From NCBI GenBank assembly GCA_002321895.1, contig DCMZ01000017.1, positions 130,220 through 194,219 of the forward strand: a stretch of 64,000 nt of DNA, read 5' to 3'. Numbering within the stretch: the first letter of the stretch is position 1; every line of letters starts with the position of its first letter. Made by a program: the position numbers and the translations under genes. Under the pieces are notes generated by a model. That model was not told where the DNA came from. It saw only the letters and a program-made list of their open reading frames with translations, and ran no database searches. Of this stretch, positions 8,309 through 27,669 are shown in pieces. This DNA comes from Bdellovibrionaceae bacterium UBA1609. GTDB lineage: Bacteria; Bdellovibrionota; Bdellovibrionia; Bdellovibrionales; UBA1609.

Positions 8309-8334
8309 CCCTTCAACAGGCGGCTAAAACGATT

Positions 8335-9846
8335 ATGGAGCTCAACAGGCAAGCCATCCACGATAAATTGAACAATCTTAATATTGAACACCGCTGTTTT
8401 GTGAGCGGCTCATTTTATGATGGGAAAGAATTAGATCTATTCAATAAAATAAGTCCTATCGATGGAAGAGAGCTGCCTGGGATCGGCATTGCGGATAGAG
8501 AACTTGTCAACCGAGCCGTAAGCGCTGCCCGAGAGAGCTATAGAAATGGAAAATGGGCGCGCACGAAGCTCTCTGAACGCAAGCAAGTCCTACTGAAATT
8601 GGCTGAAAAAATGAGCGAGAGTCGATGGGAATTAGCCCTTCTCGACACCATTGAAACGGGACGAAGTGTAAAAAATTACTACTGTGACTCCATCCCCAAG
8701 GCCATTGAAGTGGTTCGTTGGTTTGCTGAGGCTTCGGATAAGTATCTTGATTTTGCACTTCCTCCGCAGTCCTCTCATAGTGGCACAATAACAAGAGAGC
8801 CTTTAGGCGTCGTGGCCGGAATCACCCCTTGGAACGATCCACTTGTACCTGCAATGTGGAAGCTCGCCCCAGCTTTACTCATGGGTAACTCCGTGATTAT
8901 GAAGCCTGCGGAAGAGTCCTCCTACTCTTTATTAAAAATCGCAGAACTTCTCTCGAAATGTGGCCTTCCGAAGGGAACATTAAGTGTCCTCACTGGAACT
9001 GGAGAGATCACAGGAAAACTTTTGGCGCTACATCCGGAAGTGGATGGAGTGTTCTTTACTGGCTCCAGTGAGGTGGGTAAACTCATACTTCAATACTCGG
9101 GGCAGAGTAACATGAAAAAAGTGGGCCTCGAGTGCGGAGGCAAGTCTCCTTTTATAATTTCCAAAAATTGCTCTAATGTGAAAGCTGCTGCAGAAACCCT
9201 GGCTCAAAATATGTTTTATAATCAAGGCCAAATCTGTTCCGCTCCCTCTCTCGCATTTGTCCATGAAAGCCTTAGAGAAGAATTTAAGGTCCATTTAAAG
9301 ACTATTTTACCCCAGTTTCAACCTGGCGACCCGTTGAATCCTGAATCTAATATTGGTGGAGTGGTCAGCGAACAGCAACGAAACCGCATTCTGACTTATG
9401 TAGAGACTGGCAAGAAAGACCAGGTTGAATTTTATGAACCAGAACCCAAGACACTTGCCTATCCCGATCAGCAATGCGTGAATCCTATTTGTTTTTTCGA
9501 CGCTCCAGAGAGTCACGACCTTTTCAAAGAAGAAGTGTTCGGTCCCGTACTGGTTGTAAATAGCTTTTCTAATTTAGCGGAAGCCGTAAATTCGGCAAAC
9601 AATACAAACTTTGGCTTAGCCGCAAGTATTTGGACCAACGATTTAAACGAATCCTATCACGTGAGCAGAGAGCTGAGAGCAGGTATTGTACATATAAACA
9701 GCTATGGGCAAGATGACATGTCAGCTCCTTTCGGAGGCATTAAGCAATCTGGTCTCGGCAAAGATAAATCATTGTTTGCCTTTGATGAATACACTCACCT
9801 GAAAACCATTTGGACGGAATATCCATCCTCCAAAAGTGTTCTATGA
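8335..9846 (+). CDS. NAD(P)-dependent aldehyde dehydrogenase
   Basis: ALDH motifs FTGSSEVGK, LECGGKSP (catalytic Glu), GQICSAPS (catalytic Cys) and EEVFGPVL. Confidence 0.9.
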   Translation: MELNRQAIHDKLNNLNIEHRCFVSGSFYDGKELDLFNKISPIDGRELPGIGIADRELVNRAVSAARESYRNGKWARTKLSERKQVLLKLAEKMSESRWELALLDTIETGRSVKNYYCDSIPKAIEVVRWFAEASDKYLDFALPPQSSHSGTITREPLGVVAGITPWNDPLVPAMWKLAPALLMGNSVIMKPAEESSYSLLKIAELLSKCGLPKGTLSVLTGTGEITGKLLALHPEVDGVFFTGSSEVGKLILQYSGQSNMKKVGLECGGKSPFIISKNCSNVKAAAETLAQNMFYNQGQICSAPSLAFVHESLREEFKVHLKTILPQFQPGDPLNPESNIGGVVSEQQRNRILTYVETGKKDQVEFYEPEPKTLAYPDQQCVNPICFFDAPESHDLFKEEVFGPVLVVNSFSNLAEAVNSANNTNFGLAASIWTNDLNESYHVSRELRAGIVHINSYGQDDMSAPFGGIKQSGLGKDKSLFAFDEYTHLKTIWTEYPSSKSVL

Positions 9847-10997
9847 AAAAGAAGCTGTTACTCCTTAATGGTTCTCACTCGGAACTCACGCTCATTCAAA
9901 AAGCGATGGAATTGGGGCTAGAGGTAATTACCACCGGCAACGCACCTGATCTCATTGGCCATAAGTTGGCTGATAGGTACATCGCAGCCGATTACACCGA
10001 CAGATCTGCCATTTTAAAAATTGCAAAACAGGAGTCGATCGACTTTATATGCTCCTGCGCCAATGACGGTGGAGCGATCACCGCTTCCTATGTAGCTCAT
10101 GAGTTGGGCCTCCCAGGACATGATGATCCTGAAGTTTGCGAACTCATTCATTTAAAAGATAAATTTAAAAAGTGGGCCTTGGATCAAGGCCTCCCTACAT
10201 CGCCCCTCTTTTCCCCCGAAGAGTCAGCCAACCACCTCCCAGTCATTGTAAAACCAACGGATCTCACTGGTGGAAAGGGTATTAGTGTGGTTCGATCGTC
10301 CTCGGAGCTCAAGTACGCCATTGAACTGGCTAAGAAGGCGTCCCCTTCTAATAGCTATATCGTAGAGAAATTTGTTGAAGGCACTCTCCATTCTTTTTCC
10401 ACCATCGTAAGCCGTCAAACAGTTGTGGCTACACATAGTGATAATGAATTTAGCACCATCAATCCGTTTACGGTTTCAGCTTCCTACAGCCCAGCCCCAC
10501 ATTTAAAGCCAATCAAGAGCTCACTGGTGGAACTGACGGAGTCCATTGCCAAAAATCTTAAGCTGGAGGATGGCATTGTTCATTACCAGTATCTATGGGA
10601 TGGGAAACAATATTGGATTATAGAGATCACACGTCGATGCTCGGGAGACCTCTATCCGGCACCCGCATCTTTGGCTATACAACGTTCTTGGGAGGAAGCC
10701 ATTCTACTCGCCTGCATGGGCCAGCCATTAGACTTCTTATCAGGTGCCGAACAAGAAGGAAATTTTGGTCGAGTGTGTTTTATGGCTCATAAAAATGGTG
10801 AGATTAAAGACTTTAAAATCCATCCTCTTTTAGAGAAAAATGTTGTCGAAACCGTATTTGCCCGCCCCGTAGGCTATTCAATTTCTAATTTCAAAATAGA
10901 AAAATTAGGCGTAGCTATTCTAAAGTTTAGGGATAAACAGGAAGCTGAAGAGAAAGCCAAGTTTATAGACGAATGGACTCAAGTCGTTGTAGACTAG
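9843..10997 (+). CDS. ATP-grasp ligase
   Basis: I prefer the start at ATG 9843 (MKKKLLLLNG), which gives an ATGA overlap with the ALDH stop. It has a pre-ATP-grasp Rossmann-like N-terminus, then KDKFKKWA...VIVKPTDLTGGKGISVV. Confidence 0.7.
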   Translation: MKKKLLLLNGSHSELTLIQKAMELGLEVITTGNAPDLIGHKLADRYIAADYTDRSAILKIAKQESIDFICSCANDGGAITASYVAHELGLPGHDDPEVCELIHLKDKFKKWALDQGLPTSPLFSPEESANHLPVIVKPTDLTGGKGISVVRSSSELKYAIELAKKASPSNSYIVEKFVEGTLHSFSTIVSRQTVVATHSDNEFSTINPFTVSASYSPAPHLKPIKSSLVELTESIAKNLKLEDGIVHYQYLWDGKQYWIIEITRRCSGDLYPAPASLAIQRSWEEAILLACMGQPLDFLSGAEQEGNFGRVCFMAHKNGEIKDFKIHPLLEKNVVETVFARPVGYSISNFKIEKLGVAILKFRDKQEAEEKAKFIDEWTQVVVD

Positions 10998-11003
10998 CAC
11001 CCT

Positions 11004-11855
11004 ATGATGCGTTTACATCCGTGCTACAAAAAACTCGAACTCACTGATTTTGGCTATTGGATTCCCGAGCAGGCTAGCGAAGGTGAAGTGCACTACCCAG
11101 ATGAAGGCCATCAAACCGATATCGATTTTGAGTCCAAATCTTTTTGGTACAAACACAGAAATGACTGTATTGTCGCCGCTGCAAAAAATCACCCTCCCCG
11201 TGATGATGCCCCCGCTTTTGATTTAGGTGGAGGCAGCGGCTATGTCACCAAGGCCATTAATGATGCTGGTATACCAATGACACTCATAGAACCCAATCCA
11301 TTGGGGGCCAGCAAAGGGGTTCGCCGTGGACTACAGAATGTCATATGTTCTCGACTAGAAGATTGCCAAATTTCCAATGACTCTGTGGGAGGGTTTGGCC
11401 TGTATGATGTGGTAGAACACATCGAAGACGACAAAGCTTATATAGACATGCTCCATAAAAAGCTGATTGAAGGCGGCACCATTCACCTTACCGTTCCAGC
11501 CTATCAATGGCTTTGGTCCGCAGAAGATCAAACTGCCTTACATTTTCGCAGATACTCCCTAGAACAAGCGAAACAGCTATTTGATACCACTCAGTTTTCG
11601 ATAGATTATGCCTCCTACTTTTTTCAATGGTTGGTTCCTCCCATATACTTCATTCGATCTCTCCCCCATAAACTGGGTTTACAATCTAAAGAAAATGGCT
11701 ATAAATCAAATATGGATCATCACGAGTCCGGCGAAATGATGGTTAACAACATCATTGGCCACTTTAACTCAAGAGAAGTTAAAACCATTCAAAAAAATAA
11801 AACATTGAGTTTTGGTGCCAGCTGCATGGTGATCGCCAGAAAGACGGACCCATAG
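11004..11855 (+). CDS. class I SAM-dependent methyltransferase
   Basis: Motif I FDLGGGSGYV, then LYDVVEHIEDD and GGTIHLTVP (Methyltransf_11/23-like). Confidence 0.75.
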   Translation: MMRLHPCYKKLELTDFGYWIPEQASEGEVHYPDEGHQTDIDFESKSFWYKHRNDCIVAAAKNHPPRDDAPAFDLGGGSGYVTKAINDAGIPMTLIEPNPLGASKGVRRGLQNVICSRLEDCQISNDSVGGFGLYDVVEHIEDDKAYIDMLHKKLIEGGTIHLTVPAYQWLWSAEDQTALHFRRYSLEQAKQLFDTTQFSIDYASYFFQWLVPPIYFIRSLPHKLGLQSKENGYKSNMDHHESGEMMVNNIIGHFNSREVKTIQKNKTLSFGASCMVIARKTDP

Positions 11856-11874: not shown

Positions 11875-12534
11875 TTATTTTGATTTTAATTTGGCTTGAA
11901 GTAGCATCACTCCCACCAAAGATAATATGTAAATGGGCAAAATATGCCAAACTAACTTGATGGCACCAGTGACCATAGGACAGTAAAACTGCAGCGCAAA
12001 AGAACCCATAGAAGTGGCCGCTAATATGCTAAAAAACAAAGCCATAGGTTTATTCATCACATAACCCTTGGTGACCATTCGATGAATAGATATCCCCACC
12101 GGAATGGCCGACAGAGTACTGACTGTCAAACAGGTGTATCCCAAAAACATGGTTTCCACAGCAAACTCAGGCAAAAGGAAACTATCCAACACTGTCATTC
12201 CCAAAACACTCCAAAGCAGAAGAGTCCCAAAACTCAACAACCTAGATAATGTCGGGTCAATGCCTGGTCTTGAGATCATCAAAGCCGTTAATCCTGCGGC
12301 TAAAGAAGATGACAGCAGCAGGGCCTGTTCAATAATAAACTTTGCATCCAAAACTCTCTCAACAGAAAAATCAAAGCCGGCGAAAATCAAACTCAACAAA
12401 CCAGCGACAGCCAAAGACGCCACTACAGATGGGACAAACCAACGCAAAATGGTGGGCCCAATGGGAGATAACACCTTCACAGGCTTCAACTGCGAAGATA
12501 AATCACTTATTAAATCAGCACGAGATTTTCCCAT
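11875..12534 (-). CDS. NrsF/DUF1109-type membrane anti-sigma factor
   Basis: 219 aa with six TM segments. The N-terminus is ADLISDLSSQLKPVK. It lies immediately downstream of, and abuts, the ECF sigma gene, as in the sigF-nrsF arrangement. Confidence 0.55.
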   Translation of the reverse strand: MGKSRADLISDLSSQLKPVKVLSPIGPTILRWFVPSVVASLAVAGLLSLIFAGFDFSVERVLDAKFIIEQALLLSSSLAAGLTALMISRPGIDPTLSRLLSFGTLLLWSVLGMTVLDSFLLPEFAVETMFLGYTCLTVSTLSAIPVGISIHRMVTKGYVMNKPMALFFSILAATSMGSFALQFYCPMVTGAIKLVWHILPIYILSLVGVMLLQAKLKSK

Positions 12535-13076
12535 TAAACTTCCAGCTCCTTAAAAATCACTTTGTACCCTCTATGGGCGGCCACCTTGACGGCCGAGACG
12601 GTCATATTCATCTCCGTGGCCGTCTCCTTTAAAGACTTACCGTCAAATTTAAGCAAAGTTACAATTTTTCTTTGATCTTCGGAAAGCTTGGACATGGCTC
12701 GATCCAAAGCCTGCAGGTCCAGAGCGCGGATTTCCGCATCCGCGGCCTGCTCTGGGATAGAGTCTGCATCTACCTGAATTTCCACACTTTTTTTAATTTT
12801 CCTGAGGTGATCGTTAAGCCGATTTCGCGCAATGGCATAGACCCAAGGTTCCACCGGATATTCCGAATTGTACGTGTGCAAAGCTTTATGAATATTAAGT
12901 AAGACATCCTGGACTAAGTCTTCGACCAAATCACTGGCTTTGAGACGCTTATACATAAACCTCTCAACCAATTGCCCCACCCGCTCAAGCATCTGCATAT
13001 AGGCCTGGCTATCTCCCGCCTGGGCTTTCACTATGAGCTGGGTCAGCTCACTTCGACTTGTATCTTTATCGCTCAA
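12534..13076 (-). CDS. ECF (group IV) sigma-70 family sigma factor
   Basis: Region 2 is DLVQDVLLNIHKAL...PWVYAIARNRLNDHLRK. Region 4 is QRKIVTLLKFDGKSLKETATEMNMTVSAVKVAAHRG. The track ORF extends to 13277. I prefer TTG 13076 (AGGAA 9-10 nt upstream), because the longer starts (13190, 13277) overlap the GNAT gene. Confidence 0.75.
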   Translation of the reverse strand: MSDKDTSRSELTQLIVKAQAGDSQAYMQMLERVGQLVERFMYKRLKASDLVEDLVQDVLLNIHKALHTYNSEYPVEPWVYAIARNRLNDHLRKIKKSVEIQVDADSIPEQAADAEIRALDLQALDRAMSKLSEDQRKIVTLLKFDGKSLKETATEMNMTVSAVKVAAHRGYKVIFKELEV

Positions 13077-13602
13077 AGCTTTGATTTCCTGAAAATGATT
13101 GATTCCAAAAATGGTACTGTAGCACCAATTCAAACCGTTCGCTATGAAGTGGTAAAGACATAAAACAATTTGGACCAAATTCAACCTCATGGTTGATCCA
13201 GTTTGAAGTTTGTTCAAATCCGAGGCGTTGGTAGAAACCCATGGTTTCTTGACGAGCAAGAGTCCACACAAAATCACGCCCCATCACTTCCCCTAATTTA
13301 ATGATTCTAGCCGTTAACTTATTAGCAATACCAAGTCCCCTATAATAGGGATCTACATAAACCCCTCTTAATCGAAATCCATTATCATGAGTGGCGAATC
13401 CACTGATCACACCAACGATACGCTGGCTTCGATCATCCACGGCTTTGAAGAAAAAGGGGTCAGCCAAAAGAAGCTTTTTATCGTATCCACCACCAAATCG
13501 AATAGGATTTGTCGGTTCAATGCCCGATTTACGGCCTTTCCAAAGATGGTTTGCCCAAATCGGGTAGACTTCGTCAAAATTTGTCGAACTAATGCGTACC
13601 AT
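13066..13602 (-). CDS. GNAT-family N-acetyltransferase
   Basis: Acetyl-CoA motif LRGVYVDPYYRGLGIANKL. 178 aa. Confidence 0.7.
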   Translation of the reverse strand: MVRISSTNFDEVYPIWANHLWKGRKSGIEPTNPIRFGGGYDKKLLLADPFFFKAVDDRSQRIVGVISGFATHDNGFRLRGVYVDPYYRGLGIANKLTARIIKLGEVMGRDFVWTLARQETMGFYQRLGFEQTSNWINHEVEFGPNCFMSLPLHSERFELVLQYHFWNQSFSGNQSFER

Positions 13603-15109: not shown

Positions 15110-18100
15110 CTATTTAAACTTCTTAAAGAAAGAACTGTGCAGTTGATAGAACTTCTTGTAGTTCTCTTCGGTTCTTAATAACTCCAAAGCCTCGCGCATA
15201 AACCGATCTTCTCTCTCAAGCATAGAAAGTCGTGCAGACTCCTCCAGCTCTGGAATAATTTGACTACGAGCTTTTGCTAAATCACTAATAAGTACAGATT
15301 CCATGGCAACTAAACGAGGAACGATCTCTTCATTCATCTTAAGCTTCTCATTAACAAAAGTGTTCACCTCAAGAATCCAATCCCCCTGATACACTTCATC
15401 CGTCACTTGATCAATGTAGCCCGTCGTATAGAGAACATTATCAGCATAGGTGGATTTAAACTCGGCAGTCATTTCAGGCCTAAACTTTCTAGCCTCTTCT
15501 CTCTCTGCAATCTTCTTCTTTGTATACTTCTCTTGAGCTGTCTCACCTGAGATGAGAGCTGCGAGTCCTCTATCCACCAAGTCAAACTTGACGGTAATAA
15601 AAATTAGAAATATCGCTAATCCTGTTCCTAAAATTATGGACGAAATTCGAATCAAATGCTTTTTATTCTCAACCACGCCTTGAACTGTAGTCTCCGCTAT
15701 CGATCGAATCTGTTCGGAGGTCTCTACGTCATCCGGTGTAATCACTTGGCGCAGAAAGCGATCCGTCCTCTGCAGGGCTCCTTCGCCAGCGTTTAAGCTC
15801 TCAAGCTCCTGCTCAACTAACGGCTTTAATGTGTCCAAAATTTGTCTTCTAACTACTTTAAATCTCTTTTCTTCCTCACGCCGAACCTTGTTCAGCTCAG
15901 ATTCTAACTCCGAAACCTTGTTCACGCGAATTTTGGTCAACTCTAGCTCAAGCTCTTGCTTTGCCTCTTTACGCTCTTGCTCGAGGATCCCCTCTAAACT
16001 GGATTCTTTTTTGACCATCTCTTGCTCTCGAGCCTCTAACTCTCCTGTCAGTCTCTCGGCAGCTTCTTCCAGCTCTTCCCTTCTAGCTATCAGCTCCTGT
16101 ATCTTAGAACTCTCATTTTCCGATTCTTTATTCAGTCTCTGTAAATCTAGCTGATGTCTTTCTACATCCACTCGATACTGCTGCTCTTCGTTTTTAGTTT
16201 CTTCTAGCACTATTTTGTTTTGATCAAGTGCCTCTTGTAGGCTCTTATATTCCTTTTCTAAATCCAGTTTTTTAATTTCTATTTTCTTTTGTTCTGCCAA
16301 CAATTCGCTTTTTTTAACATTATGCTGGGCATCCAGAGCTTTCATTTTGTCTGCGACTTCAGTTTTATATGCCTTTAACGAACTCGCCGACTCATCCTTT
16401 TCACGCTCAAAAGCCAATCTTTGAGAATCCAATTTGTGGATTTCGGACCGTAACCCTTGAACCGTCGCTTCTGATTGTTCTGTTGCCTTTCCTAGCTTTT
16501 CTAAATTTTTAAACCCATCATCTAACTCCAGTTCGAGCTGACTTTTCTCTTTTTTGAATTGCTGAATTTCAGCTTCTAAAGATTGATAGCGCTCCCTAGC
16601 ATCTTTAAACTCTCTATCTAGATGATCCTGTTTTGCTTGAAATTCTCTTTCAAGCATTTCTTCTTTACTCTCTTTATGTTTATCCAACTGCTGAATATCA
16701 ATTTCAACTTGATGCATTTGGTTTTTTAAACCATTCAACTCTGCTTCTAGTTTTGTGCGATAGCTAGTGACTTCTGTCTTTACGTATTCGCTTTGGTTTC
16801 TCACTTTTTCTTCAATTTCTAAATTGATATGTTCTAACTCATTATTCAGAGCGAATTTCTTTTTCTCGATTTCTTCTTCGAAATCCTCTAGATGTTTCTG
16901 CAGAAGAACTCTTTCAGATTCCAATTCTTCTTTTTCTGCTTCAAAGCTCTTTTCTATTTCTTTTCTCGAACTAGCGACTAAACTATTAAATGATTCAAAA
17001 TCGAGCTCTGTCTGGCTACGCTTCCCCTGCAGATCCGACTTAAACATCTCGAAATCATTCTCTAGATCTATTTTTTCTGATTTAATATTTTCAATTTCAT
17101 CCAAAAGAGAAGATTTCTCTCCCTGCAACTCTTCGAGCTTGTGGTTGAGTTTTGCCATTTCGGTATTGATCGCGCTCACCTTATCATCATGTTGCTCAAT
17201 GATCTGCTCTTTAAGTTCTAATTCATTACCCTTTTCTTCGATCTCTCTATGTAATTCCTCTAGCTGATGGGTTGCTGAAGCACGATTATCTTCTAATTCT
17301 TTAATATCGCCTTTAACTTTCTCTTCTGACGATTTAAGTATATTTAGTTCATTAATTTTATTGTTGTATTCCTGATTGGCTTCACCGATTTCCTTCTTTT
17401 TTCCTTCAACAGTTCTTAAAATCCCTTTTAGATTCTCTTCCTGCTCTAGAATTCCACTCTTACGAATAGCTAGCTCATCCTCTAATTCATCTAACTTTTC
17501 AGTTAGACCCTTCATTCGGATAACAAGTTGAGATCTTTGCTTTTCCTGATCCCTATCATATTGGGCCAATTCATTCTTCTTGGTTACAACCAGCTGATTA
17601 AATTCATCGAACTGATGTTTTGCCTTCTCATGATCTAAATCTAACTGTTTATGTTGCTCTAAGATCTTCTCGTTAGCTCCAACGTAATATTGGAAAGTAT
17701 CTATCTGTTGGTTGAGCTCTTTTGTCTGCGAGGCTATTTCACTAGTGATTTCTTGAAGCGCTGCCTTATTTTCAGTGAGAACTTTAGTTTGGATAGTAAT
17801 ATCACCTTGAAGAACGGAAAGCTTTTCTCTGGCTTTATCAGCCTCCTCTAAGGCTTCCTTTTCATCACCAAGATGCTTTTTTCTCCTTTCATCAAGCTCT
17901 CTGATAGCTTCATGAGTTTCATTCCTAAAGGTTTCTAACTGACTGTCCAAACTCTCTTTTTCAGCCTGGGCAGACTCCCTGTCCGTCTCCAACTGAAGTT
18001 TGGTATTCTCAATGTTATTTTGCAAATCAACAATTGTTGATTTGTGTGACTTAATTTCCTCTAAGACTTTATTTTTATCTTCGATGACCTTTTTCTTCTC

Positions 18101-18925
18101 TTCATAGAGAACTTGAATCTTCTCTTTTTCGTTCTCCTGGTCCTTTTGAAGATGATCAATGTCATTTTCTAACTCTTTAGATTTATTCTGGTAAGCAATA
18201 ACAGCCGCTTCTAACTGTTCTAACTTAGAATTATTTTCCTTTAGTTTTTTCTCTAGGCCTTCACGAGCACGACTCAGATTATCCACCTGAATCTGAACAT
18301 TCTTTTTCTTGGTTTCCAAGCCCTTCAGTAATGCCTCAGCTCTTCGAATATCATGAAAAGCTTCCTTCTCTTCCTGTGACGCCAGACTATTAAAATTTTG
18401 CTCTTTCTTTACAGATCCTGGTGGATCCACCAAGGATGCATCTTCAAACGAAAGCCCATCATCATCCCGAGGCTCGATATAGCTTTCTTCCGTGTCATCA
18501 GAAACAGGCTCAACCAACTGAAGTTCCGCCTGATCCCCTCCCTCTTTCAAATTTGATTCTAAGCCATTCTCTGATGTGGACTGTGGACCGCCAATAGATA
18601 CTTTAAAATAATAAAGTTGAGGTCCACCAAAACCAATCTTATCTTCAGGCATAACTTCTTGCGGCTGCGAGGGCTCTATGCGCTTGCCATTCAGATAGGT
18701 TCCATTTGATGAATTCAAGTCCGTAACGTAGATCCGTCCGGAGATTTGCTCGATTTTAAAATGCTTTCGACTGAGCTCAGAGTGATTGAAAACTGCATTA
18801 GCACTAGACCCACGTCCAACCACGAAGGTGGACTCGTGCACTAAGCGCACTTCATCACTGGTGGGCATACAGTAAGTTATTTCAATAGGCAATGCACCTA
18901 GATCCCTGGTGGCAGCCTCGCTCAT
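15110..18925 (-). CDS. FHA-domain protein with ~800-aa coiled coil, one C-proximal TM helix and ~190-aa extracytoplasmic tail
   Basis: N-terminal FHA signature VVGRGSSANAVFNHSELSRKHFKIE...YVTDLNSSNGTYLNGKRI. Heptad-rich E/K/L/Q sequence runs from aa ~185 to ~1010. TM helix is LIRISSIILGTGLAIFLIFITV. Confidence 0.85.
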   Translation of the reverse strand: MSEAATRDLGALPIEITYCMPTSDEVRLVHESTFVVGRGSSANAVFNHSELSRKHFKIEQISGRIYVTDLNSSNGTYLNGKRIEPSQPQEVMPEDKIGFGGPQLYYFKVSIGGPQSTSENGLESNLKEGGDQAELQLVEPVSDDTEESYIEPRDDDGLSFEDASLVDPPGSVKKEQNFNSLASQEEKEAFHDIRRAEALLKGLETKKKNVQIQVDNLSRAREGLEKKLKENNSKLEQLEAAVIAYQNKSKELENDIDHLQKDQENEKEKIQVLYEEKKKVIEDKNKVLEEIKSHKSTIVDLQNNIENTKLQLETDRESAQAEKESLDSQLETFRNETHEAIRELDERRKKHLGDEKEALEEADKAREKLSVLQGDITIQTKVLTENKAALQEITSEIASQTKELNQQIDTFQYYVGANEKILEQHKQLDLDHEKAKHQFDEFNQLVVTKKNELAQYDRDQEKQRSQLVIRMKGLTEKLDELEDELAIRKSGILEQEENLKGILRTVEGKKKEIGEANQEYNNKINELNILKSSEEKVKGDIKELEDNRASATHQLEELHREIEEKGNELELKEQIIEQHDDKVSAINTEMAKLNHKLEELQGEKSSLLDEIENIKSEKIDLENDFEMFKSDLQGKRSQTELDFESFNSLVASSRKEIEKSFEAEKEELESERVLLQKHLEDFEEEIEKKKFALNNELEHINLEIEEKVRNQSEYVKTEVTSYRTKLEAELNGLKNQMHQVEIDIQQLDKHKESKEEMLEREFQAKQDHLDREFKDARERYQSLEAEIQQFKKEKSQLELELDDGFKNLEKLGKATEQSEATVQGLRSEIHKLDSQRLAFEREKDESASSLKAYKTEVADKMKALDAQHNVKKSELLAEQKKIEIKKLDLEKEYKSLQEALDQNKIVLEETKNEEQQYRVDVERHQLDLQRLNKESENESSKIQELIARREELEEAAERLTGELEAREQEMVKKESSLEGILEQERKEAKQELELELTKIRVNKVSELESELNKVRREEEKRFKVVRRQILDTLKPLVEQELESLNAGEGALQRTDRFLRQVITPDDVETSEQIRSIAETTVQGVVENKKHLIRISSIILGTGLAIFLIFITVKFDLVDRGLAALISGETAQEKYTKKKIAEREEARKFRPEMTAEFKSTYADNVLYTTGYIDQVTDEVYQGDWILEVNTFVNEKLKMNEEIVPRLVAMESVLISDLAKARSQIIPELEESARLSMLEREDRFMREALELLRTEENYKKFYQLHSSFFKKFK

Positions 18926-18941
18926 TTAAACCTCGATTACA

Positions 18942-19892
18942 CTAAGCTGAGATTTTTCTCAGCTGTTCTTTTTTCTTTCGCAACTCAATCTTATCTTTTG
19001 CTAACTGCTCTTCTAGGGCCTTAGATGCCAACACTTCCATTGGGTCTCTATGCTCGTCAAACTCAGGAATATCTTCAGGTAATTTATTGTCTGTACTTCT
19101 GTTCCACAACACATCTAGAGAATTCTCAAATTTATCAACAATGGAAACAAATAGTTTTTCCGGACTGGTGGTCGTATTAACTACAGTCATCACCACAGAC
19201 AAAACTATACCTAAAATCGAAGAACTCATTGAAAAGGAAATCTTCACTAAGAATTTATCCATAATCAATTTCGCGCCTTCTGGATCCGCTAGATCCATGG
19301 TCCCCAATTCAGGCAAAGCTGCCATAATTCCCAAGAAGGTACCAAAGATACCACTAATAATAAAAATACCTGGTAAAATGTTTAATACATCATTAAACAA
19401 TGAAGCCGGCATAACCCCGAACACTTTCGAAAAACTTGCATTATTTGAAAAAACATTTTTAGAGATATCTTTTAACTTTGGAATATTACTTGTGTACTTC
19501 AAATACTTGATTTGTTTTAAAGTATCTCTTACTAAAATGGCACAACCATGTTGAATGAGGAACACCCTATCACTCATGGACATTATGAAGTCGCTATTTC
19601 TTCTTTTGTGCAACGATCTCTTAATAAACAATTCATAATAGGTTTTCTCTAGAATATGCTTAGTAAGAACAAAGAACGACATATCCCCTCTGTCATCACT
19701 TTCATCCATATACTCATGAACTCTTCGTTCGAATTCTTTTGCAAACCAATGTTCTCTTTTCACTGTGAAGAAAATCAGTCCTCTAAGAACCACTCCCGCA
19801 ATGAATAGAAAACCCATAGTTGGCATCAACATATCTGTTGAGAACTTCACTAAAAAGTTGACTAATCCTTCGACCATCTCTTGGGTTATCAT
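18942..19892 (-). CDS. MotA/TolQ/ExbB-family proton-channel-like protein (3 TM)
   Basis: TM1 MPTMGFLFIAGVVLRGLIFF, then a long cytoplasmic loop, then TM2/3 carrying the family-like motif LPGIFIISGIFGTFLGIMAAL ... SSSILGIVLSVVMTVV. The C-terminal tail is charged. Confidence 0.6.
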   Translation of the reverse strand: MITQEMVEGLVNFLVKFSTDMLMPTMGFLFIAGVVLRGLIFFTVKREHWFAKEFERRVHEYMDESDDRGDMSFFVLTKHILEKTYYELFIKRSLHKRRNSDFIMSMSDRVFLIQHGCAILVRDTLKQIKYLKYTSNIPKLKDISKNVFSNNASFSKVFGVMPASLFNDVLNILPGIFIISGIFGTFLGIMAALPELGTMDLADPEGAKLIMDKFLVKISFSMSSSILGIVLSVVMTVVNTTTSPEKLFVSIVDKFENSLDVLWNRSTDNKLPEDIPEFDEHRDPMEVLASKALEEQLAKDKIELRKKKEQLRKISA

Positions 19893-19902
19893 ATCTCGTT
19901 CC

Positions 19903-21609
19903 TTAGTTTTTAAGGTTAAATTTAATAATCACTCTTTGATACTTCTTACAGTCCGTTGCCTTACAGAAATCCGATGCTGACATTGTTGAGGCTGTTCGCC
20001 TGTCCGTTTTTATCTCATTTGCCACATCAAGATATCCTCGACCCGTAACTTTAATAATTTTTCTAAGCCGTCTTTGCTCAGAAAAAGTCATTTTTCGTGT
20101 ATCAAAAATATGATCAAATATGGCTTTTGCCCGTCTATAACTCAAATCAAGGTTGTAGCTCGTCGCTTTTTGTTCAGCAGGATCTAGACTATCCGGATCC
20201 ACAAACTTACCTCTGTAAGTAGGTGAGGCAAATCCTACGATTTCAACATTGGCGATGTTCTTCGCAATCTTTTTTCTCTTGAATAGACTCTGAGCGTATA
20301 CTGGGACGGACTTATCAAGAATCTTCTGCATATTATTTTTAAGATCCGCTTTACCCGTGTCAAAGTATTCGTCTCCAAATTCGAGAATAACTTCACCGGT
20401 CTTACCATCAATTTTGGCCTTGATTCCGGCCTTTTTAAAATTCTTCTTAATATCCGAGATCAACTTCTTACGTGCATCTGCTTTTGCTCGCTCCTTCGCC
20501 AGCTTAGCTTTAAACTCTTTCGTTAAGTTGGATATCTTAGACTCTTTAGAAGCCACTTCATCTTTTGTCTGCTTAAGTGCCGCTTGCAGCTGAGCCTTTC
20601 TAGCAGCTTCAGCCTGCAACTTTGAACTTAGCTTTGAGGATTTTGAGGACTCTGCCTTCAACTGTTCTTGAAGTTCGGATTTCCGTTGAGCTTCAGCCTG
20701 AAGTTCGTTCTCTACCTCTTGAGCTCTCTGCTTCTCTCTCTGGAGTTTTGCTTGGAGCCTCTGCCTTCTTTGAGCCTGAGTTTCTATTTCCTTGTTCGCC
20801 TTTTTCAACAGATTCTCTGCCGACGTTAACTCTAGCTCAATTCTATTCATCTGTTTTTCAACAGTTTTGTTTTGATCCTTTAAGGCATTAATTCGCTCTT
20901 GTGACTTTACCTTCAACTCAGCTACCCGCCGACGCATTTTAGCCTTTGAAAGCTTAGCTTCTCTACGCTCATTCTGAAGCTCCATAATGCTCGCTTGCAA
21001 ATCCATATTGATGGCTTGAATCTTTTCATTGTTCTCAATGATTTGATTCTCTTTTTGGTTTATATCTTGATTCAAGTCTTTTATCTGCTCACGCTTCTCC
21101 GCTATGATTTTCTGTTTCTGCTGAATGGTGATATCTTTTTTCTTGATGACCGTATCACGCTTTTTTATTCTGGCCGATGCAACCATATTTGAATTAATGA
21201 TGTTTTTAATCATCTTTTGATACTTATTAAGAGCAGCTTTCTTTTTCTGGTTCTCAGAAGCTTGCTTCATCAAGTCTTCACTTTCCTGTTGAGCCTCCTC
21301 TTGTAGCAAACTCAACTTACCCATCAATTCATTATAACTTTCTTGCTCGTCCTGACTGGCACCCTTCTGCAAGTAGTCCTCTTTAAGAGTTTCGTAAACT
21401 TTGTTTTGCTGACGAAGCTCCGTTACCTCTTTAACCAGCTCTTGATATTCAATGTTGTTTTGCAAGCTGTTGGTTCCACCACGTAAACTTGTAGTTACAT
21501 AAAGTAAAAGAAATACAACGGACAAAACCATAAACAAATCACTATAAGAAGCCCATTGATTGCCTCCCTCTTCGTGCTTTGCTCTTAACTTGTCGTAATC
21601 AAAACCCAT
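19903..21609 (-). CDS. MotB/OmpA-like protein with ~350-aa coiled-coil insert between TM helix and peptidoglycan-binding domain
   Basis: N-terminus NQWASYSDLFMVLSVVFLLLYV (MotB-type TM with Asp). Residues ~50-400 are coiled coil. The C-terminus is OmpA-like: VEIVGFASPTYRG...NLDLSYRRAKAIFDHIF. Confidence 0.7.
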   Translation of the reverse strand: MGFDYDKLRAKHEEGGNQWASYSDLFMVLSVVFLLLYVTTSLRGGTNSLQNNIEYQELVKEVTELRQQNKVYETLKEDYLQKGASQDEQESYNELMGKLSLLQEEAQQESEDLMKQASENQKKKAALNKYQKMIKNIINSNMVASARIKKRDTVIKKKDITIQQKQKIIAEKREQIKDLNQDINQKENQIIENNEKIQAINMDLQASIMELQNERREAKLSKAKMRRRVAELKVKSQERINALKDQNKTVEKQMNRIELELTSAENLLKKANKEIETQAQRRQRLQAKLQREKQRAQEVENELQAEAQRKSELQEQLKAESSKSSKLSSKLQAEAARKAQLQAALKQTKDEVASKESKISNLTKEFKAKLAKERAKADARKKLISDIKKNFKKAGIKAKIDGKTGEVILEFGDEYFDTGKADLKNNMQKILDKSVPVYAQSLFKRKKIAKNIANVEIVGFASPTYRGKFVDPDSLDPAEQKATSYNLDLSYRRAKAIFDHIFDTRKMTFSEQRRLRKIIKVTGRGYLDVANEIKTDRRTASTMSASDFCKATDCKKYQRVIIKFNLKN

Positions 21610-21636: not shown

Positions 21637-21663
21637 TTATCGGATCAAGAATTAGTTAAATTA
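21637..21663 (-). promoter_or_regulatory. sigma-28 (FliA)-like promoter upstream of the motB-like operon
   Basis: The minus strand reads TAAT-N15-tCCGATAA (consensus TAAA-N15-GCCGATAA). The -10 element ends 27 nt before the ATG at 21609, and AGGTG lies 7 nt upstream of the ATG. Confidence 0.3.
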
Positions 21664-21803
21664 ATAATTCCTGAAACATTTCCTGTATTTGTTTCGACAT
21701 ACGTCTGTTACCTCGAATCGAAATTCTCAAAATGAGACAGACTTTTGTAGGGCCAGCCATTTCTTTCGATAGAAAGTGCTGTTCAAGCTCAATAGAACTC
21801 CTC

Positions 21804-23870
21804 TTAGGAGACCTTTTTCTTGCTGTAATCCATCTTCCTCTTCTTTTTTCCAAGAGCAAAACTCAGCAGCCCACCTTTTTTATAGAACTTGTCACCTGAT
21901 TCTACAGTAAGATCTCCAGAGCCAAGTATTAAACCCCGAACCTTTTCCATAATTGATTCTAGCTTTTGAGCCTCTTCGTTCATTGATTTGGCTAGAGAAT
22001 CAGAATCATGTGCCAATGAAAGGTTCTTATGAGTCAAATCGTCGATATTTCGCATAGCTTCGTTGACTTTCTTAATGCCTGCTTCTTGTTCTGCAGTGGC
22101 ACCAAGTATATCTCGCACCTTTTGAGTCATCGAAGTTAGGTCTTGAGCAATTTCACTAAATTTTTCAGTAGCTTCATTTGCAACCCGATCACCCTGAGAA
22201 ATCTTTTCACCGATTTCACCCACCACATTGAGAACCTGTGTCTGTGACTCTTTAATAAGTGAATCAATATCCTTTGCAGCTTCTCCTGAAAGTTGAGCCA
22301 AATTACCAACTTCCTCCGCAACTACTGCAAAGCCCTTACCATGCACCCCTGCTCTCGCGGCCTCTATCGAAGCATTGAAGGCCAACAATTTAGTATTGAA
22401 AACAATTTCATTGATCACGTTTGTTTTTTCAGAAATCGTCTGGATGATCTTCGCCATCGATTCAAGATCTTTATTTGAATTCTGGATAAAACCCATAGAG
22501 GCCTGCATTTGATTCATAATATGAGATCCATCTTTTGACTTTTGATTGACACCATCTGCGGACTGTAAGGATTCTTCTACATACTTATTTGTATTTGAGA
22601 GCATAGACATCATTTGATCTAGAGCCGCCATAGTCTCTTGAACAGCCTCTTGCTGCTGCCGTGCTGCATCTGAAAGTTCTGAGCTCACATTGTTCAAGTT
22701 TCCACTTGTCGATATTGAAGAAGCTGATCTTTGCTTTAAATTATTGGTTTCAAACACCAACTTGTCTGATTCCAAAGAAGTGATTTTCCAAGAAAGTAGT
22801 AAAAACCCACAACAGATAAGTACCACTAAGCCATAGAATACATTTGTTTGGCTTGTTAATGAACCCGTCAACTCAGACTCTTCAATTTTAATTATTGTTG
22901 CCCAACCTAATTCAGAATGGGTGTCGGATTCCAGACTTGTATAGCCAACGTAAGCTCTATGTTTTCCCTGAAAAGAATTTGATGAAAGTAAATACCCTGA
23001 ATGACTATTCAGCGCTTCTGTAACTCCAGCCATCTTTTCACGACTCAGATTTCGCGAACCAAGTTCGTTTCGATCATATCCTACATCCATGGAACCTTTA
23101 CCGTAGGGTTCGTAAGAAAATATCAAATTTCCACTTTTTGACACCAGGTAGAACTCGGCCTTATCCACCCCTTTAGTCTTTAAAGATTCATAAAGATTTT
23201 GATAAGAACTGGCTACCCAACTAAAATTTGTTCTTAGTGTGAGAACTCCAATCGTATTTCCTGATGAATCTTTTACACTTGTAGAAAAACTCAACCCATA
23301 AACACTCTTACCCAATGCCTTAGCGGATATAGGATCAAATTGTGCGTTCTCTAAATAGGTGCCTGATCTGTTCAACTCTAAATCATTTGAATATTTTCCT
23401 GATAGACTACTTGTAAACCAGGGCATGGATGAATAATTGATAGACATCAAAACCGCTTTATTCACATTCTCGTTTTTGGAATTTCTGGAGTTGGAAGCTA
23501 CATACTCTCCATTTGCCGAAACGTATAGCAGCAAGTCGTAGGCACTATCAGAGGAGACATATTTATCTAAAGCCTTCTGGATACCTTCCACATCCCCAGT
23601 CTCATAAACTCTATTTTGAGCAAAGTTCTGAACACCCCAATAGTGTTTCTCAAATTTCTGTCCAATGTGACTAGAAATGCTAATAGCATGACCTTGGACA
23701 CTGGAACCGGCAGTCCCCTTCTGTTCGCTGTAGAGGAAGTAGACTTGAATCACTGCTACTACAGTGAACACTGTAAGCATTGAACCTACCATAAGTAGAA
23801 TTTTTGCTTTTAGCGAAGATAATTTGTATTTGTCTAACCAACGATTTACCAGAGCCATTAACTCCTCCAT
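21804..23870 (-). CDS. methyl-accepting chemotaxis protein with periplasmic Cache-like sensor
   Basis: Two TM helices flank a ~300-aa periplasmic domain. Highly conserved signalling hairpin: KLLAFNASIEAARAGVHGKGFAVVAEEVGNLA. Confidence 0.9.
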   Translation of the reverse strand: MEELMALVNRWLDKYKLSSLKAKILLMVGSMLTVFTVVAVIQVYFLYSEQKGTAGSSVQGHAISISSHIGQKFEKHYWGVQNFAQNRVYETGDVEGIQKALDKYVSSDSAYDLLLYVSANGEYVASNSRNSKNENVNKAVLMSINYSSMPWFTSSLSGKYSNDLELNRSGTYLENAQFDPISAKALGKSVYGLSFSTSVKDSSGNTIGVLTLRTNFSWVASSYQNLYESLKTKGVDKAEFYLVSKSGNLIFSYEPYGKGSMDVGYDRNELGSRNLSREKMAGVTEALNSHSGYLLSSNSFQGKHRAYVGYTSLESDTHSELGWATIIKIEESELTGSLTSQTNVFYGLVVLICCGFLLLSWKITSLESDKLVFETNNLKQRSASSISTSGNLNNVSSELSDAARQQQEAVQETMAALDQMMSMLSNTNKYVEESLQSADGVNQKSKDGSHIMNQMQASMGFIQNSNKDLESMAKIIQTISEKTNVINEIVFNTKLLAFNASIEAARAGVHGKGFAVVAEEVGNLAQLSGEAAKDIDSLIKESQTQVLNVVGEIGEKISQGDRVANEATEKFSEIAQDLTSMTQKVRDILGATAEQEAGIKKVNEAMRNIDDLTHKNLSLAHDSDSLAKSMNEEAQKLESIMEKVRGLILGSGDLTVESGDKFYKKGGLLSFALGKKKRKMDYSKKKVS

Positions 23871-25364: not shown

Positions 25365-26072
25365 ATGCTAAATAAAATACCAAATATTTTTCATAAATCT
25401 GGTGGTTTATTTTACCATTACATTGCTTTAAAATACAAAAAATCCCTATGGGAAAGCCTTCGAGTTATTTTTAACTTAGAGCTTCAAAAAAGAAAAATGT
25501 CTAATGTAGTTCTCATAGGTCCGAGCGCGGGTTACCTATTAGATCCTTCCAATATCCACTCTTTTAAAAAGGTCCATTGCTGGGAACCCGATCCCAGTGC
25601 TCACCCATTCCTCAAAAGGAAGCTCAAACAGCATGCAAATTTTCATATTCACAAAGAGAGTGTTCCTTTTCACGAGCCAGAATTATTCAGACACACATTG
25701 AGGAATTTCGAATTATCGCCCAATGAGACGTTACTTGTGTTCTGCAATATTCTCGGGCAATGGGATTGGAACGGTGGCCCCATCGCCGAAAAATCTATCC
25801 AGTTTATGACGACTCTTGATGCCTACAATCAGCTGAGTGTCCATGAGGAATACTCCACAGATATCAATCCTAAACAACGCAGCACGAAAGATTCACTGCC
25901 AGCCAGTTTCGATCAATTGAAGAATCTGTCTCGGTCTGGAATAATTCAAGACCACAATACAGTGGATCTTTTTTCTCCTGAAGAGAAATCAGAACCCTTT
26001 TGGTGGACCATAACTCCACGTCAACTTCACTTGATGGTCTGCGGATTTAAAAAAGGAACTTATAATGAATAG
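25365..26072 (+). CDS. hypothetical protein
   Basis: 235-aa ORF. Its stop overlaps the MscS-like start by 8 nt. No motif recognised. Confidence 0.4.
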   Translation: MLNKIPNIFHKSGGLFYHYIALKYKKSLWESLRVIFNLELQKRKMSNVVLIGPSAGYLLDPSNIHSFKKVHCWEPDPSAHPFLKRKLKQHANFHIHKESVPFHEPELFRHTLRNFELSPNETLLVFCNILGQWDWNGGPIAEKSIQFMTTLDAYNQLSVHEEYSTDINPKQRSTKDSLPASFDQLKNLSRSGIIQDHNTVDLFSPEEKSEPFWWTITPRQLHLMVCGFKKGTYNE

Positions 26073-27669
26073 AATGCTCCTCTTACTCTCTACCCTATTA
26101 TTTGTAATTACCGGGCATACCAGCCCATTAAAGCCCCTCAAATTGGACTCACCGAGAGATACATTGAGGTCGTTTTACTCGGCCATGCAGGACTATAAGA
26201 CCGGATTAGAAACAGGAGATGATAAACTCCTCTACAGAATTGAAGATGCGGTCAGATGCCTGGATTTATCTAATGCTAACCCAGTGATCAAAACTGAAGT
26301 TGGCCGTGAAACAGCTATTTTTCTAAAAGAGGTGATCGATCGTATCATAGTTCTCGATTATGAGCTGGTTCCCGATTCCAGTGAGATTTCAAGATGGCGT
26401 TTAAAAGATACTGAGATCACTATTTATAAAATCAGCGACCCCACCTCGGAACAAAATGGAGAGTTTCTTTTTACTCCTGGCACAGTCAGCCGAGCCGCTC
26501 GAGATTATAGAACAGTCAAGTCACTGCCTTACCTTGAAGGAAGTGGAAAAGGTGCCGGGTTTAACGATCCATTATTTGAAGAAATGGTACCCCTCTGGGC
26601 GAAAGAAAAGAATCTTGGATTATCCAACTGGCAATGGATAGGGCTACTACTGGTCATCATCGGCGGCCTGATTGTAAAAATTGTTGCCGAGTTTGGCGTG
26701 ATCATCTTAATGAAACTGACCGTCCATCGTAAAAACAGCATTCGCCACCAACTACTGCAAGCCTTAGAAAAACCCATTGGATTGGTATTCGCCACAGCAC
26801 TTTGGTTCGTATCGATTTATTTTTTAAAATTGGATGGTGTTCCATTAGCCGTCACCAATGTGGTTGTAAAAATCGTGTTTAGCGTGTCCGTAATTTGGGC
26901 CTGCTTCAATCTCGCAAACGTACTTACAAAGTTTTTAGAGCGGGTCACAGAAAAGACAGCCAGCGAAATGGACGATCAACTCGTACCACTCATTTCAAAA
27001 GCACTCCGAGTTTTTATTGTTGTTTTTGGTATTCTAATGACTATCCAAAGTCTTGGATTCAATATTATGTCCATCATGGCGGGTTTGGGATTAGGCGGAC
27101 TCGCCTTTGCTCTTGCTGCCAAAGACACCGCTGCCAATCTTTTTGGATCCATTATGATTCTGATTGATCGCCCCTTTAAGGTGGGTGATTGGGTTCGCGC
27201 ATCTAGCTCCGAAGGAACTGTTGAAGAAATAGGATTTCGATCGACTAGAATTAGAACCTTCTACAACTCCTTAGTTTCGGTGCCTAATATGGAAATGGCC
27301 ACCACCACCATTGATAATATGGGAGCTCGCAAGTTTAGACGAGAAAATATCACACTTGGCGTTACCTACGACACCAGAACCGATCAAATTGAGGCTTTTA
27401 TGGAAGGTATCAAGAAAATCATCCTTGATAACCCATATACAAACAAAGAGAACTTTCATGTGGCTTTTCGTGGATTCGGGGACTCTAGTTTAAATATTAT
27501 GGTCTACTATTTTGTCGAGGTGAAAGATTGGAGTGATGAGCTAAAGGCCAAACAAGATATCAATCTTAAGGTTTTACAGCTGGCTGAATCGTTAGATGTC
27601 AGTTTTGCATTTCCTTCACAAAGTGTGTATTTAGAGAAAATGCCTACCAACAATGAAGCCGTTCAATAA
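26065..27669 (+). CDS. MscS-family mechanosensitive channel with N-terminal periplasmic domain
   Basis: Signal peptide, several TM helices, and the MscS core AAKDTAANLFGSIMILIDRPFKVGDWV...GTVEEIGFRSTRIRTF. Confidence 0.85.
   Translation: MNRMLLLLSTLLFVITGHTSPLKPLKLDSPRDTLRSFYSAMQDYKTGLETGDDKLLYRIEDAVRCLDLSNANPVIKTEVGRETAIFLKEVIDRIIVLDYELVPDSSEISRWRLKDTEITIYKISDPTSEQNGEFLFTPGTVSRAARDYRTVKSLPYLEGSGKGAGFNDPLFEEMVPLWAKEKNLGLSNWQWIGLLLVIIGGLIVKIVAEFGVIILMKLTVHRKNSIRHQLLQALEKPIGLVFATALWFVSIYFLKLDGVPLAVTNVVVKIVFSVSVIWACFNLANVLTKFLERVTEKTASEMDDQLVPLISKALRVFIVVFGILMTIQSLGFNIMSIMAGLGLGGLAFALAAKDTAANLFGSIMILIDRPFKVGDWVRASSSEGTVEEIGFRSTRIRTFYNSLVSVPNMEMATTTIDNMGARKFRRENITLGVTYDTRTDQIEAFMEGIKKIILDNPYTNKENFHVAFRGFGDSSLNIMVYYFVEVKDWSDELKAKQDINLKVLQLAESLDVSFAFPSQSVYLEKMPTNNEAVQ

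Follow-up and report, generated by a model that had tools for sequence, protein, structure and literature searches.

Ion-driven motors of the 5:2 type power flagella, gliding, type 9 secretion, TonB- and Tol-dependent transport as well as Zorya defence, and several of them (GldLM/PorLM, TolQR-TolA and ExbBD-TonB) relay energy or information through a long element that spans the periplasm. The stretch of DNA analysed here (64,000 nucleotides; the window) originates from Bdellovibrionaceae bacterium UBA1609 (GenBank assembly GCA_002321895.1, contig DCMZ01000017.1, positions 130,220 to 194,219 of the forward strand) and harbours an open reading frame (ORF; 19903..21609, minus strand) for a protein of 568 amino acids, termed B. 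This ORF probably encodes the B subunit, i.e. the wall anchor with the ion-binding Asp, of a ZorAB-type ion-driven motor that is specific to the Bdellovibrionota and encoded by an operon of the order B-A-F. An earlier, sequence-only reading had taken the ORF for a MotB/OmpA-like subunit and its host for a predator. The organism is indeed a Bdellovibrio-like predator; of the assignment, the transmembrane (TM) helix and the OmpA-like peptidoglycan (PG)-binding fold stood, while the protein resembles ZorB rather than MotB.

The best described relatives of this motor type are found in flagella and in phage defence. The plug and linker of MotB comprise ~50 flexible, Gly/Pro-rich residues (PMC12505986). 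In EcZorB, the TM helix is fused to the PG-binding domain without a linker, and mutation of the PG-binding residues Y151/N152/L155/R159 reduces PG binding and abolishes defence; the partner ZorA possesses a long cytoplasmic tail (~70 nm) needed for Zorya (PMC11946911). With MotAB/PomAB, the proteins studied here share a single TM helix with Asp and the N-terminus inside, a C-terminal OmpA-fold PG anchor and a presumed 5:2 architecture. They differ in that the linker of B is a rigid, Pro-free coiled coil of ~350 residues, A lacks a match to MotA, and the operon lies outside flagellar gene clusters. ZorAB (8qyd; types I and II, 8vvn and 8vvi) provided the best matches among solved structures and, for A, the only ones; common to both are the TM helix of B with its catalytic Asp, the PG-binding fold with the motif Y-N-x2-L-x3-R, and the three-TM core of A with its Thr/Ser filter residues. 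Sequence similarity of B or A to GldLM/PorLM, TolQR-TolA or ExbBD-TonB was not detected in a Pfam scan and a search of the A profile against the PDB. In those systems the long element moves and ends in a partner-binding domain, whereas the rod of B ends in a PG anchor, which implies that B stays in place and the ring of A subunits moves.

Kinship of B and A with ZorB and ZorA

The ATG start of B is considered correct, since the N-terminus is conserved among homologues. The following features were assigned to B and A:

21478..21609, minus strand: B residues 1-44, short putatively cytoplasmic N-terminus and single TM helix with invariant Asp24 (W-x-S-Y-S-D-L-F); from hydropathy, alignment and profile
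20428..21477, minus strand: B residues 45-394, alpha-helical heptad rod, highly conserved in 45-155, variable in sequence and length in ~155-380; from composition, periodicity, alignment and AlphaFold2
19906..20427, minus strand: B residues 395-568, predicted ZorB-type OmpA-fold PG-binding domain with Y485, N486, L489, R493 and the invariant C549/C554; from PADLOC, profile, AlphaFold2 and Foldseek
18942..19892, minus strand: A subunit of 316 amino acids, predicted three-TM ZorA-like ion-channel subunit with conserved cytoplasmic loop and C-terminal tail of 75 amino acids; from PADLOC and NCBIfam ZorA matches

Hydropathy revealed a single TM segment in B (approximately residues 22-44) containing SYSDLF, and W19, S23, D24 and L25 are invariant in the alignment (D24 in 30 homologues). 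A profile of residues 1-61 retrieved EcZorB as best match from the PDB (8qyd_F, E = 2.3e-4), followed by two other ZorB chains and then MotB. The segment WasySDLF of B aligns to WISYADLM of EcZorB, which places D24 on the catalytic Asp26 of ZorB. Similarity to MotB was weak, comprising matches to chains 6ysf and 6ysl and hits of the MotB plug model PF13677 below its cut-off (E = 0.093 and 12.8 bits against a cut-off of 24 for B; E = 6e-4, likewise sub-cut-off, for the B subunit of the metagenomic locus L095).

The C-terminal domain yielded a similar ranking by profile and by fold. PADLOC assigned residues 361-532 to ZorB1 (E = 1.3e-29) and NCBIfam detected ZorB2 (E = 1e-7), while a profile of the C-terminal 190 residues found type II ZorB (8vvi_A, E = 8.7e-7) ahead of MotB in the PDB. 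The AlphaFold2 model of this domain (pLDDT 83.8, pTM 0.79) was matched by Foldseek to ZorB (8vvi/8vvn/8qyd, E = 8e-6 to 2.5e-5) and next to the OmpA-like domains of YiaD, YfiB, OmpA and MotB (E = 6e-5 to 1e-2), in agreement with the OmpA-like domain proposed earlier. Y485/N486/L489/R493 are spaced like the PG-binding residues of EcZorB, with N486, L489 and R493 invariant and Y485 nearly so. Unlike ZorB with its two disulfides, B has a C-x4-C pair near the C-terminus. As judged from these comparisons, both ends of B are closest to ZorB rather than MotB, and since TM helix and PG-binding domain are directly fused in EcZorB, B appears to be a ZorB whose junction helix between the two is expanded by ~320-350 residues. 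Identity with the flagellar E-ring protein FlgY was considered and dropped, as the latter carries an MgtE_N head and lacks a PG-binding domain.

The A gene begins ten bases 3' of B. Searched against the PDB, the A family profile matched ZorA chains only (E = 1e-5 to 6e-3), and T185 and S225, polar residues of A in TM2 and TM3, align to the filter residues T147 and S184 of EcZorA and are invariant in 77 orthologues. The cytoplasmic domain of A is very strongly conserved. The A proteins of the family comprise 301 to 367 amino acids. Among 1.84 billion representatives the A profile found just 381 matches (E <= 1e-3), indicating a small family that is sharply set off from ordinary ZorA. Several A orthologues carry precomputed matches to the Pfam family PF28082 ('ZorA-like_t1'), so that at least A is already filed as ZorA-like.

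The rod of B presumably lies in the periplasm, because a single ZorB-like TM helix is present, the PG-binding domain shares its side of the membrane, and this domain alone holds the invariant Cys pair; exactly two Cys, both within it, occur in 178 of 186 family members (the non-identical set over which rod length and register statistics were also taken). The periplasmic placement assumed by the sequence-only reading is thereby upheld, by homology. A reversed topology or a cytoplasmic rod, with B as a cytoskeletal coiled coil unrelated to the wall, would agree with a composition like that of cytoplasmic SMC or myosin rods and with a positive-inside rule that gives no guidance (median of two Lys plus Arg on either side of the TM helix). 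It is nevertheless extremely improbable, given the homology in register of the lone TM helix to ZorB/MotB helices, the PG-binding fold with intact PG-contact residues on the side of the rod, and the position of the Cys pair.

Sequence and geometry of the rod

The rod is a genuine coiled coil. Residues 46-400 of B contain no Pro and three Gly and are dominated by K (16.6 %), E (12.1 %), Q (11.5 %), A (10.1 %) and L (9.3 %). The hydrophobic contrast of heptad positions a and d amounts to 0.408, compared to 0.276 +/- 0.026 over 300 shuffles (z = 5.1); these positions are 53-56 % hydrophobic, the remaining ones 8-13 %, and the strongest periodicities are 3.52 and 2.32 residues. The coiled coil of ~350 residues claimed earlier between TM helix and PG-binding domain is thus real, with a length of 351 residues. 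Whereas EcZorB is linker-free, the rod comprises 276-543 residues across the B family (median 361) and is devoid of Pro in 177 members. The length of the N-proximal arm is congruent modulo 7 in 171 members, indicating that indels come as whole heptads, which recalls the length classes of chemoreceptor four-helix bundles. The near-repeats pointed out before (LQAKLQ at 285-290, LQAEAQRK at 303-310 and LQAEAARK at 331-338) were located inside the poorly conserved, variable part of the rod; an origin as DNA tandem repeats was ruled out.

At 0.1485 nm per residue, a continuous helix of 351 residues would measure 52 nm (41-81 nm across the family), so the rod of ~50 nm suggested earlier holds for its length if continuous. 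Its being uninterrupted does not: the AlphaFold2 monomer model breaks the helix at residues 83-85, 217-221 and 324-330, and register shifts of +4 recur along the rod. Over residues 150-300 this model is confident (pLDDT 79-93) and forms a hairpin with its turn at the exact midpoint of the rod. It thereby resembles antiparallel periplasmic hairpins such as HlyD/EmrA adaptors and colicin R-domains, which were the best neighbours at low root-mean-square deviation in a Foldseek search of the full-length model; no match of this search was significant. The midpoint fold may be an artefact, because a monomer prediction cannot form a parallel dimer.

Family comparisons point in both directions. For a hairpin speaks that in some lineages +42 or +56 residues in the first arm are accompanied by +28 to +44 in the second. 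Against a strict hairpin speak extra residues in one arm only (35 of 186 sequences), the weak correlation of the two arm lengths (r = 0.29, 186 members), the pairing of the highly conserved residues 45-155 with a variable segment that it would demand, and a preference for Asn at a, Lys at e and Glu at g, which is the signature of parallel dimers. Across the AlphaFold2 turn the heptad register runs on almost without a break and favours neither geometry. Unlike the described hairpins and chemoreceptors, the arms of B are thus only partly compensated and parallel-dimer-like in their a/d/e/g composition, and homology to either group is lacking. A parallel tether of ~52 nm and a folded hairpin of ~25 nm are about equally probable. 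In either geometry, a PG anchor at the tip of a rod standing perpendicular to the membrane cannot be accommodated in a normal periplasm, which bears out the earlier argument that the rod is too long for such an arrangement and leaves hairpin and oblique tether about even.

Such a rod could also serve as a passive, wall-anchored periplasmic scaffold for cell shape, pole identity or periplasm spacing, with the MotB-like helix as mere membrane anchor. The rod is long, like those of structural proteins such as Lpp, CpoB or crescentin-like ones, the orthologue Bd1167 of strain HD100 was earlier called 'crescentin like' (PMC2797640), and the B-like protein of the metagenomic locus L092 (371 amino acids) retains TM Asp and rod and is devoid of the PG-binding domain. 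A purely structural role is however disfavoured by the conservation of the ion-pathway residues: Asp24 is invariant in the TM helix of B, as are Thr185 and Ser225 in the obligately co-encoded A, and without ion conduction these residues and the very strong conservation of the cytoplasmic part of A would be difficult to account for. We regard the scaffold as improbable.

Conservation, regulation and possible role of the operon

Gene order was examined in 83 fetched loci. A follows B in 82 of them and F follows A in the 73 with enough flanking sequence, giving B-A-F as the gene order in 73-82 of the 83; any other gene is common to at most 11. The module is present as a single copy in each locus examined, and its genomic contexts vary. 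More than 1000 clusters match B over its full length at 40-47 % identity. A scan of one genome per species detected relatives in at least 346 species genomes, essentially all of them Bdellovibrionota. The best 80 of these 346 comprise Bdellovibrionaceae, Pseudobdellovibrionaceae, Bacteriovoracaceae, Halobacteriovoraceae, Peredibacter and Oligoflexia, among them complete genomes of Bdellovibrio and Peredibacter, next to a few evidently mis-binned contigs of metagenome-assembled genomes (MAGs).

The third gene encodes F, a giant bitopic membrane protein with the following features:

15110..18925, minus strand: F, 1271 amino acids, third gene of the operon, after A
18626-18856, minus strand: FHA domain, residues 24-100 (Pfam FHA, E = 4e-17; canonical GR, SxxH and NG motifs)
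between FHA domain and TM helix, minus strand: coiled coil of ~900 residues (composition)
15575-15658, minus strand: TM helix, approximately residues 1090-1117 (hydropathy)
15113-15574, minus strand: conserved C-terminal domain of ~150 residues (alignment)

No relative of the C-terminal domain was found in PDB or Pfam, and F matched no Zor effector in PADLOC. In place of the ~70 nm tail of ZorA, the operon thus provides an A subunit with a tail of 75 residues plus a separate FHA coiled-coil membrane protein.

The HD100 orthologues of B, A and F are Bd1167, Bd1168 and Bd1169 (L089; BX842601.2, 1107745-1112616). Their attack-phase expression values, in reads per kilobase per million (RPKM), amount to 932, 1354 and 527, compared to 35, 23 and 14 in growth phase (Karunker et al., PMC3627812); the three genes are attack-phase specific with 26- to 55-fold induction, and a single start site was mapped for the operon (PMC3627812). 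Bd1167 was down 30 min into predation (Lambert et al., PMC2797640). In the window, the region 5' of B contains a promoter-like site:

21638..21664, minus strand: FliA (sigma-28)-type promoter-like site TTAAT-N16-CCGATA, with the end of the -10 element 28 nucleotides 5' of the B ATG (sequence read)

This site differs by one mismatch from the attack-phase FliA consensus of Bdellovibrio bacteriovorus, TTAAG-N16-CCGATA (PMC3627812). FliA-type sites scoring <=2 were present in 34 of 80 regions 5' of B orthologues (2.3 expected from shuffles, 1 in the reverse complement), demonstrating an enrichment of this promoter type across the phylum.

Promoter type and phase of expression, when the cells swim, could also point to an auxiliary motility device, i.e. 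a unit co-regulated with flagellar genes through FliA that would serve the sheathed polar flagellum or gliding as a stator-like part or scaffold, and a gene for a methyl-accepting chemotaxis protein (21804-23870, minus strand) is located directly 5' of the operon. This chemoreceptor adjacency is however not conserved in other genomes, nor is any flagellar or gliding gene conserved beside the operon, and FliA drives two-thirds of the attack-phase promoters of B. bacteriovorus, most of which are non-flagellar (PMC3627812). Moreover, A matches ZorA and not MotA, PomA, TolQ or AglR, and the operon is carried by contigs labelled Oligoflexales and Oligoflexus (MAG labels only). A motility device in this sense is unlikely.

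The kinship to Zorya suggests, on the other hand, a new subtype of this anti-phage system with the FHA coiled-coil protein as effector or signalling arm: ZorA and ZorB are the closest families of A and B in PADLOC, NCBIfam and PDB, and the module is self-contained and found in varied genomic contexts. Contrary to Zorya, a ZorC/D/E-like nuclease or helicase was not detected (PADLOC), the 83 loci revealed neither conserved genes for ZorC/ZorD, ZorE or ZorF/G effectors nor another conserved neighbour, and A lacks the long tail that Zorya needs. The module occurs once per examined locus, is distributed phylum-wide in the ordinary chromosome, and closely follows the attack-phase programme in its regulation. 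Identities of 38-47 % across families and of 72 % to the closest MAG are as expected of vertical descent, as far as sequence divergence can tell. The window represents an ordinary chromosomal region (with prs, ychF, radA and SLT genes) and no defence island. A defence role is disfavoured because effectors are absent, the operon is phylum-wide in the ordinary chromosome and its regulation follows the attack phase, in which expression is constitutive; we hold it to be very unlikely. In our reading, the operon encodes an uncharacterised, apparently vertically inherited hunting-phase motor module rather than a defence system.

In the motor proposed here, five A subunits would ring two B subunits (A5B2, by homology to ZorAB), and protons passing Asp24 would drive rotation of the A ring against the B dimer, which is held by the wall. 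In the periplasm, the rod would set the site and compliance of wall contact by the anchor, either as a parallel dimeric tether of ~50 nm running obliquely under the sacculus, or as a folded-back spike of ~25 nm that keeps the PG-binding domain, like that of ZorB, close to the membrane. Output would be cytoplasmic, via the very conserved cytoplasmic domain of A and probably via F, which may provide as a separate chain (in trans) the long cytoplasmic coiled coil built into ZorA itself (in cis) and couple it to phosphothreonine signalling through the FHA domain. The predicted periplasmic domain of F may dock at the conserved rod segment 45-155. Likely roles would be in envelope sensing or signalling, or in motility or invasion of the hunting cell. 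More speculative, and rather unlikely in its full extent, is that predatory Bdellovibrionota domesticated a Zorya-type rotary motor as hunting-phase mechanosensor: a coiled-coil spike or tether on the B dimer, spanning or underlying the periplasm, would report envelope deformation or prey contact by gating proton-driven rotation of the A ring. The FHA-tipped cytoplasmic coiled coil of F would then relay this rotation into phosphothreonine signalling, through which the cell would commit itself to invasion.

Several observations weigh against a ZorAB-type motor. Similarity to ZorA and ZorB is remote: identity over the PG-binding domain amounts to just 14-23 %, and A reaches EcZorA at E = 1e-5 by profile. 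Pfam OmpA (PF00691) gave nothing on B at E <= 0.1, and the Pfam model MotA_ExbB did not match A; the kinship emerged through PADLOC and NCBIfam models, family profiles and fold search only. The promoter of Bd1167 was scored non-FliA by its authors (PMC3627812). Three metagenomic two-gene variants (L092:4021-6967, L094:1066-4588 and L095:1130-4802) possess no F, and F is tied to A and B through operon conservation only. Stoichiometry, rotation, PG binding and topology are carried over from homologous systems, and a functional study or mutant phenotype of Bd1167-Bd1169 was not found in the literature. There, mentions of Bd1167 are confined to transcriptome studies, under the labels 'microtubule binding' and 'crescentin like', and no described function, which would have counted against the sequence-only reading, was found for homologues with such linkers. 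The genes are absent under HD100 names from the Tn-seq supplements of PMC6561027 and from PMC12034629, with the 109J locus tags left unmapped, and a literature search for ZorA-like, ZorB-like or ZorAB-like proteins under such names found nothing.

If the motor assignment is true, the known 5:2 motors would gain a family that is core to an entire predatory phylum, confined in its expression to the hunting phase and of a different build, with one long coiled coil on the periplasmic B subunit and a second one contributed by a separate FHA protein. The abundant attack-phase genes Bd1167-Bd1169 would gain a concrete mechanistic hypothesis. For the Zorya field, the family would represent a natural experiment bearing on the control of motor activation by the tail and by the position of the PG anchor, and on whether housekeeping motors were the source of Zorya or descended from it.

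Variant loci, annotations and surroundings of the operon

The A proteins of the three two-gene variants comprise 516-626 amino acids and carry a disordered tail that is acidic or Pro/Ala-rich. Three MAG contigs labelled Flavobacteriaceae (L021), Thioalkalivibrio (L026) and Bacillota (L073) harbour a typical Bdellovibrio-type B-A-F operon and are probably mis-binned; the A subunit of L073 shares 84 % identity with its counterpart in Bdellovibrio sp. HCB290. Orthologues of F range from ~650 to 1457 amino acids. In the closest relative (L004:10704-14416; B 72 % identical), F appears split into ORFs of 924 and 280 amino acids, which may be due to a frameshift or an assembly error, or may be genuine. 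Across 45 complete loci the lengths of B, A and F correlate (Spearman 0.53-0.59), all three being longer in Bacteriovoracaceae and Halobacteriovoraceae, which most likely represents phylogeny rather than physical pairing.

In HD100, Bd1167 is annotated as 'microtubule binding protein', Bd1169 as 'large Ala/Glu-rich protein', and 'myosin heavy subunit' is used in JGI among these orthologues; these annotations are coiled-coil artefacts that hide the kinship to ZorB and ZorA. The start of Bd1167 differs among gene callers (522 or 498 amino acids).

A weak terminator-like hairpin accompanies the chemoreceptor gene at 21798-21810 of the window. Further genes in the window comprise a group for a radical SAM/SPASM enzyme, an aldehyde dehydrogenase, an ATP-grasp enzyme and a methyltransferase (7121-11855, plus strand), which may represent a small-molecule or peptide modification cluster, and an extracytoplasmic function (ECF) sigma factor with an NrsF-like anti-sigma partner (11875-13277, minus strand). 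On the other side of the operon, an MscS-type mechanosensitive channel with a long N-terminal extension is encoded at 26065-27669 (plus strand).

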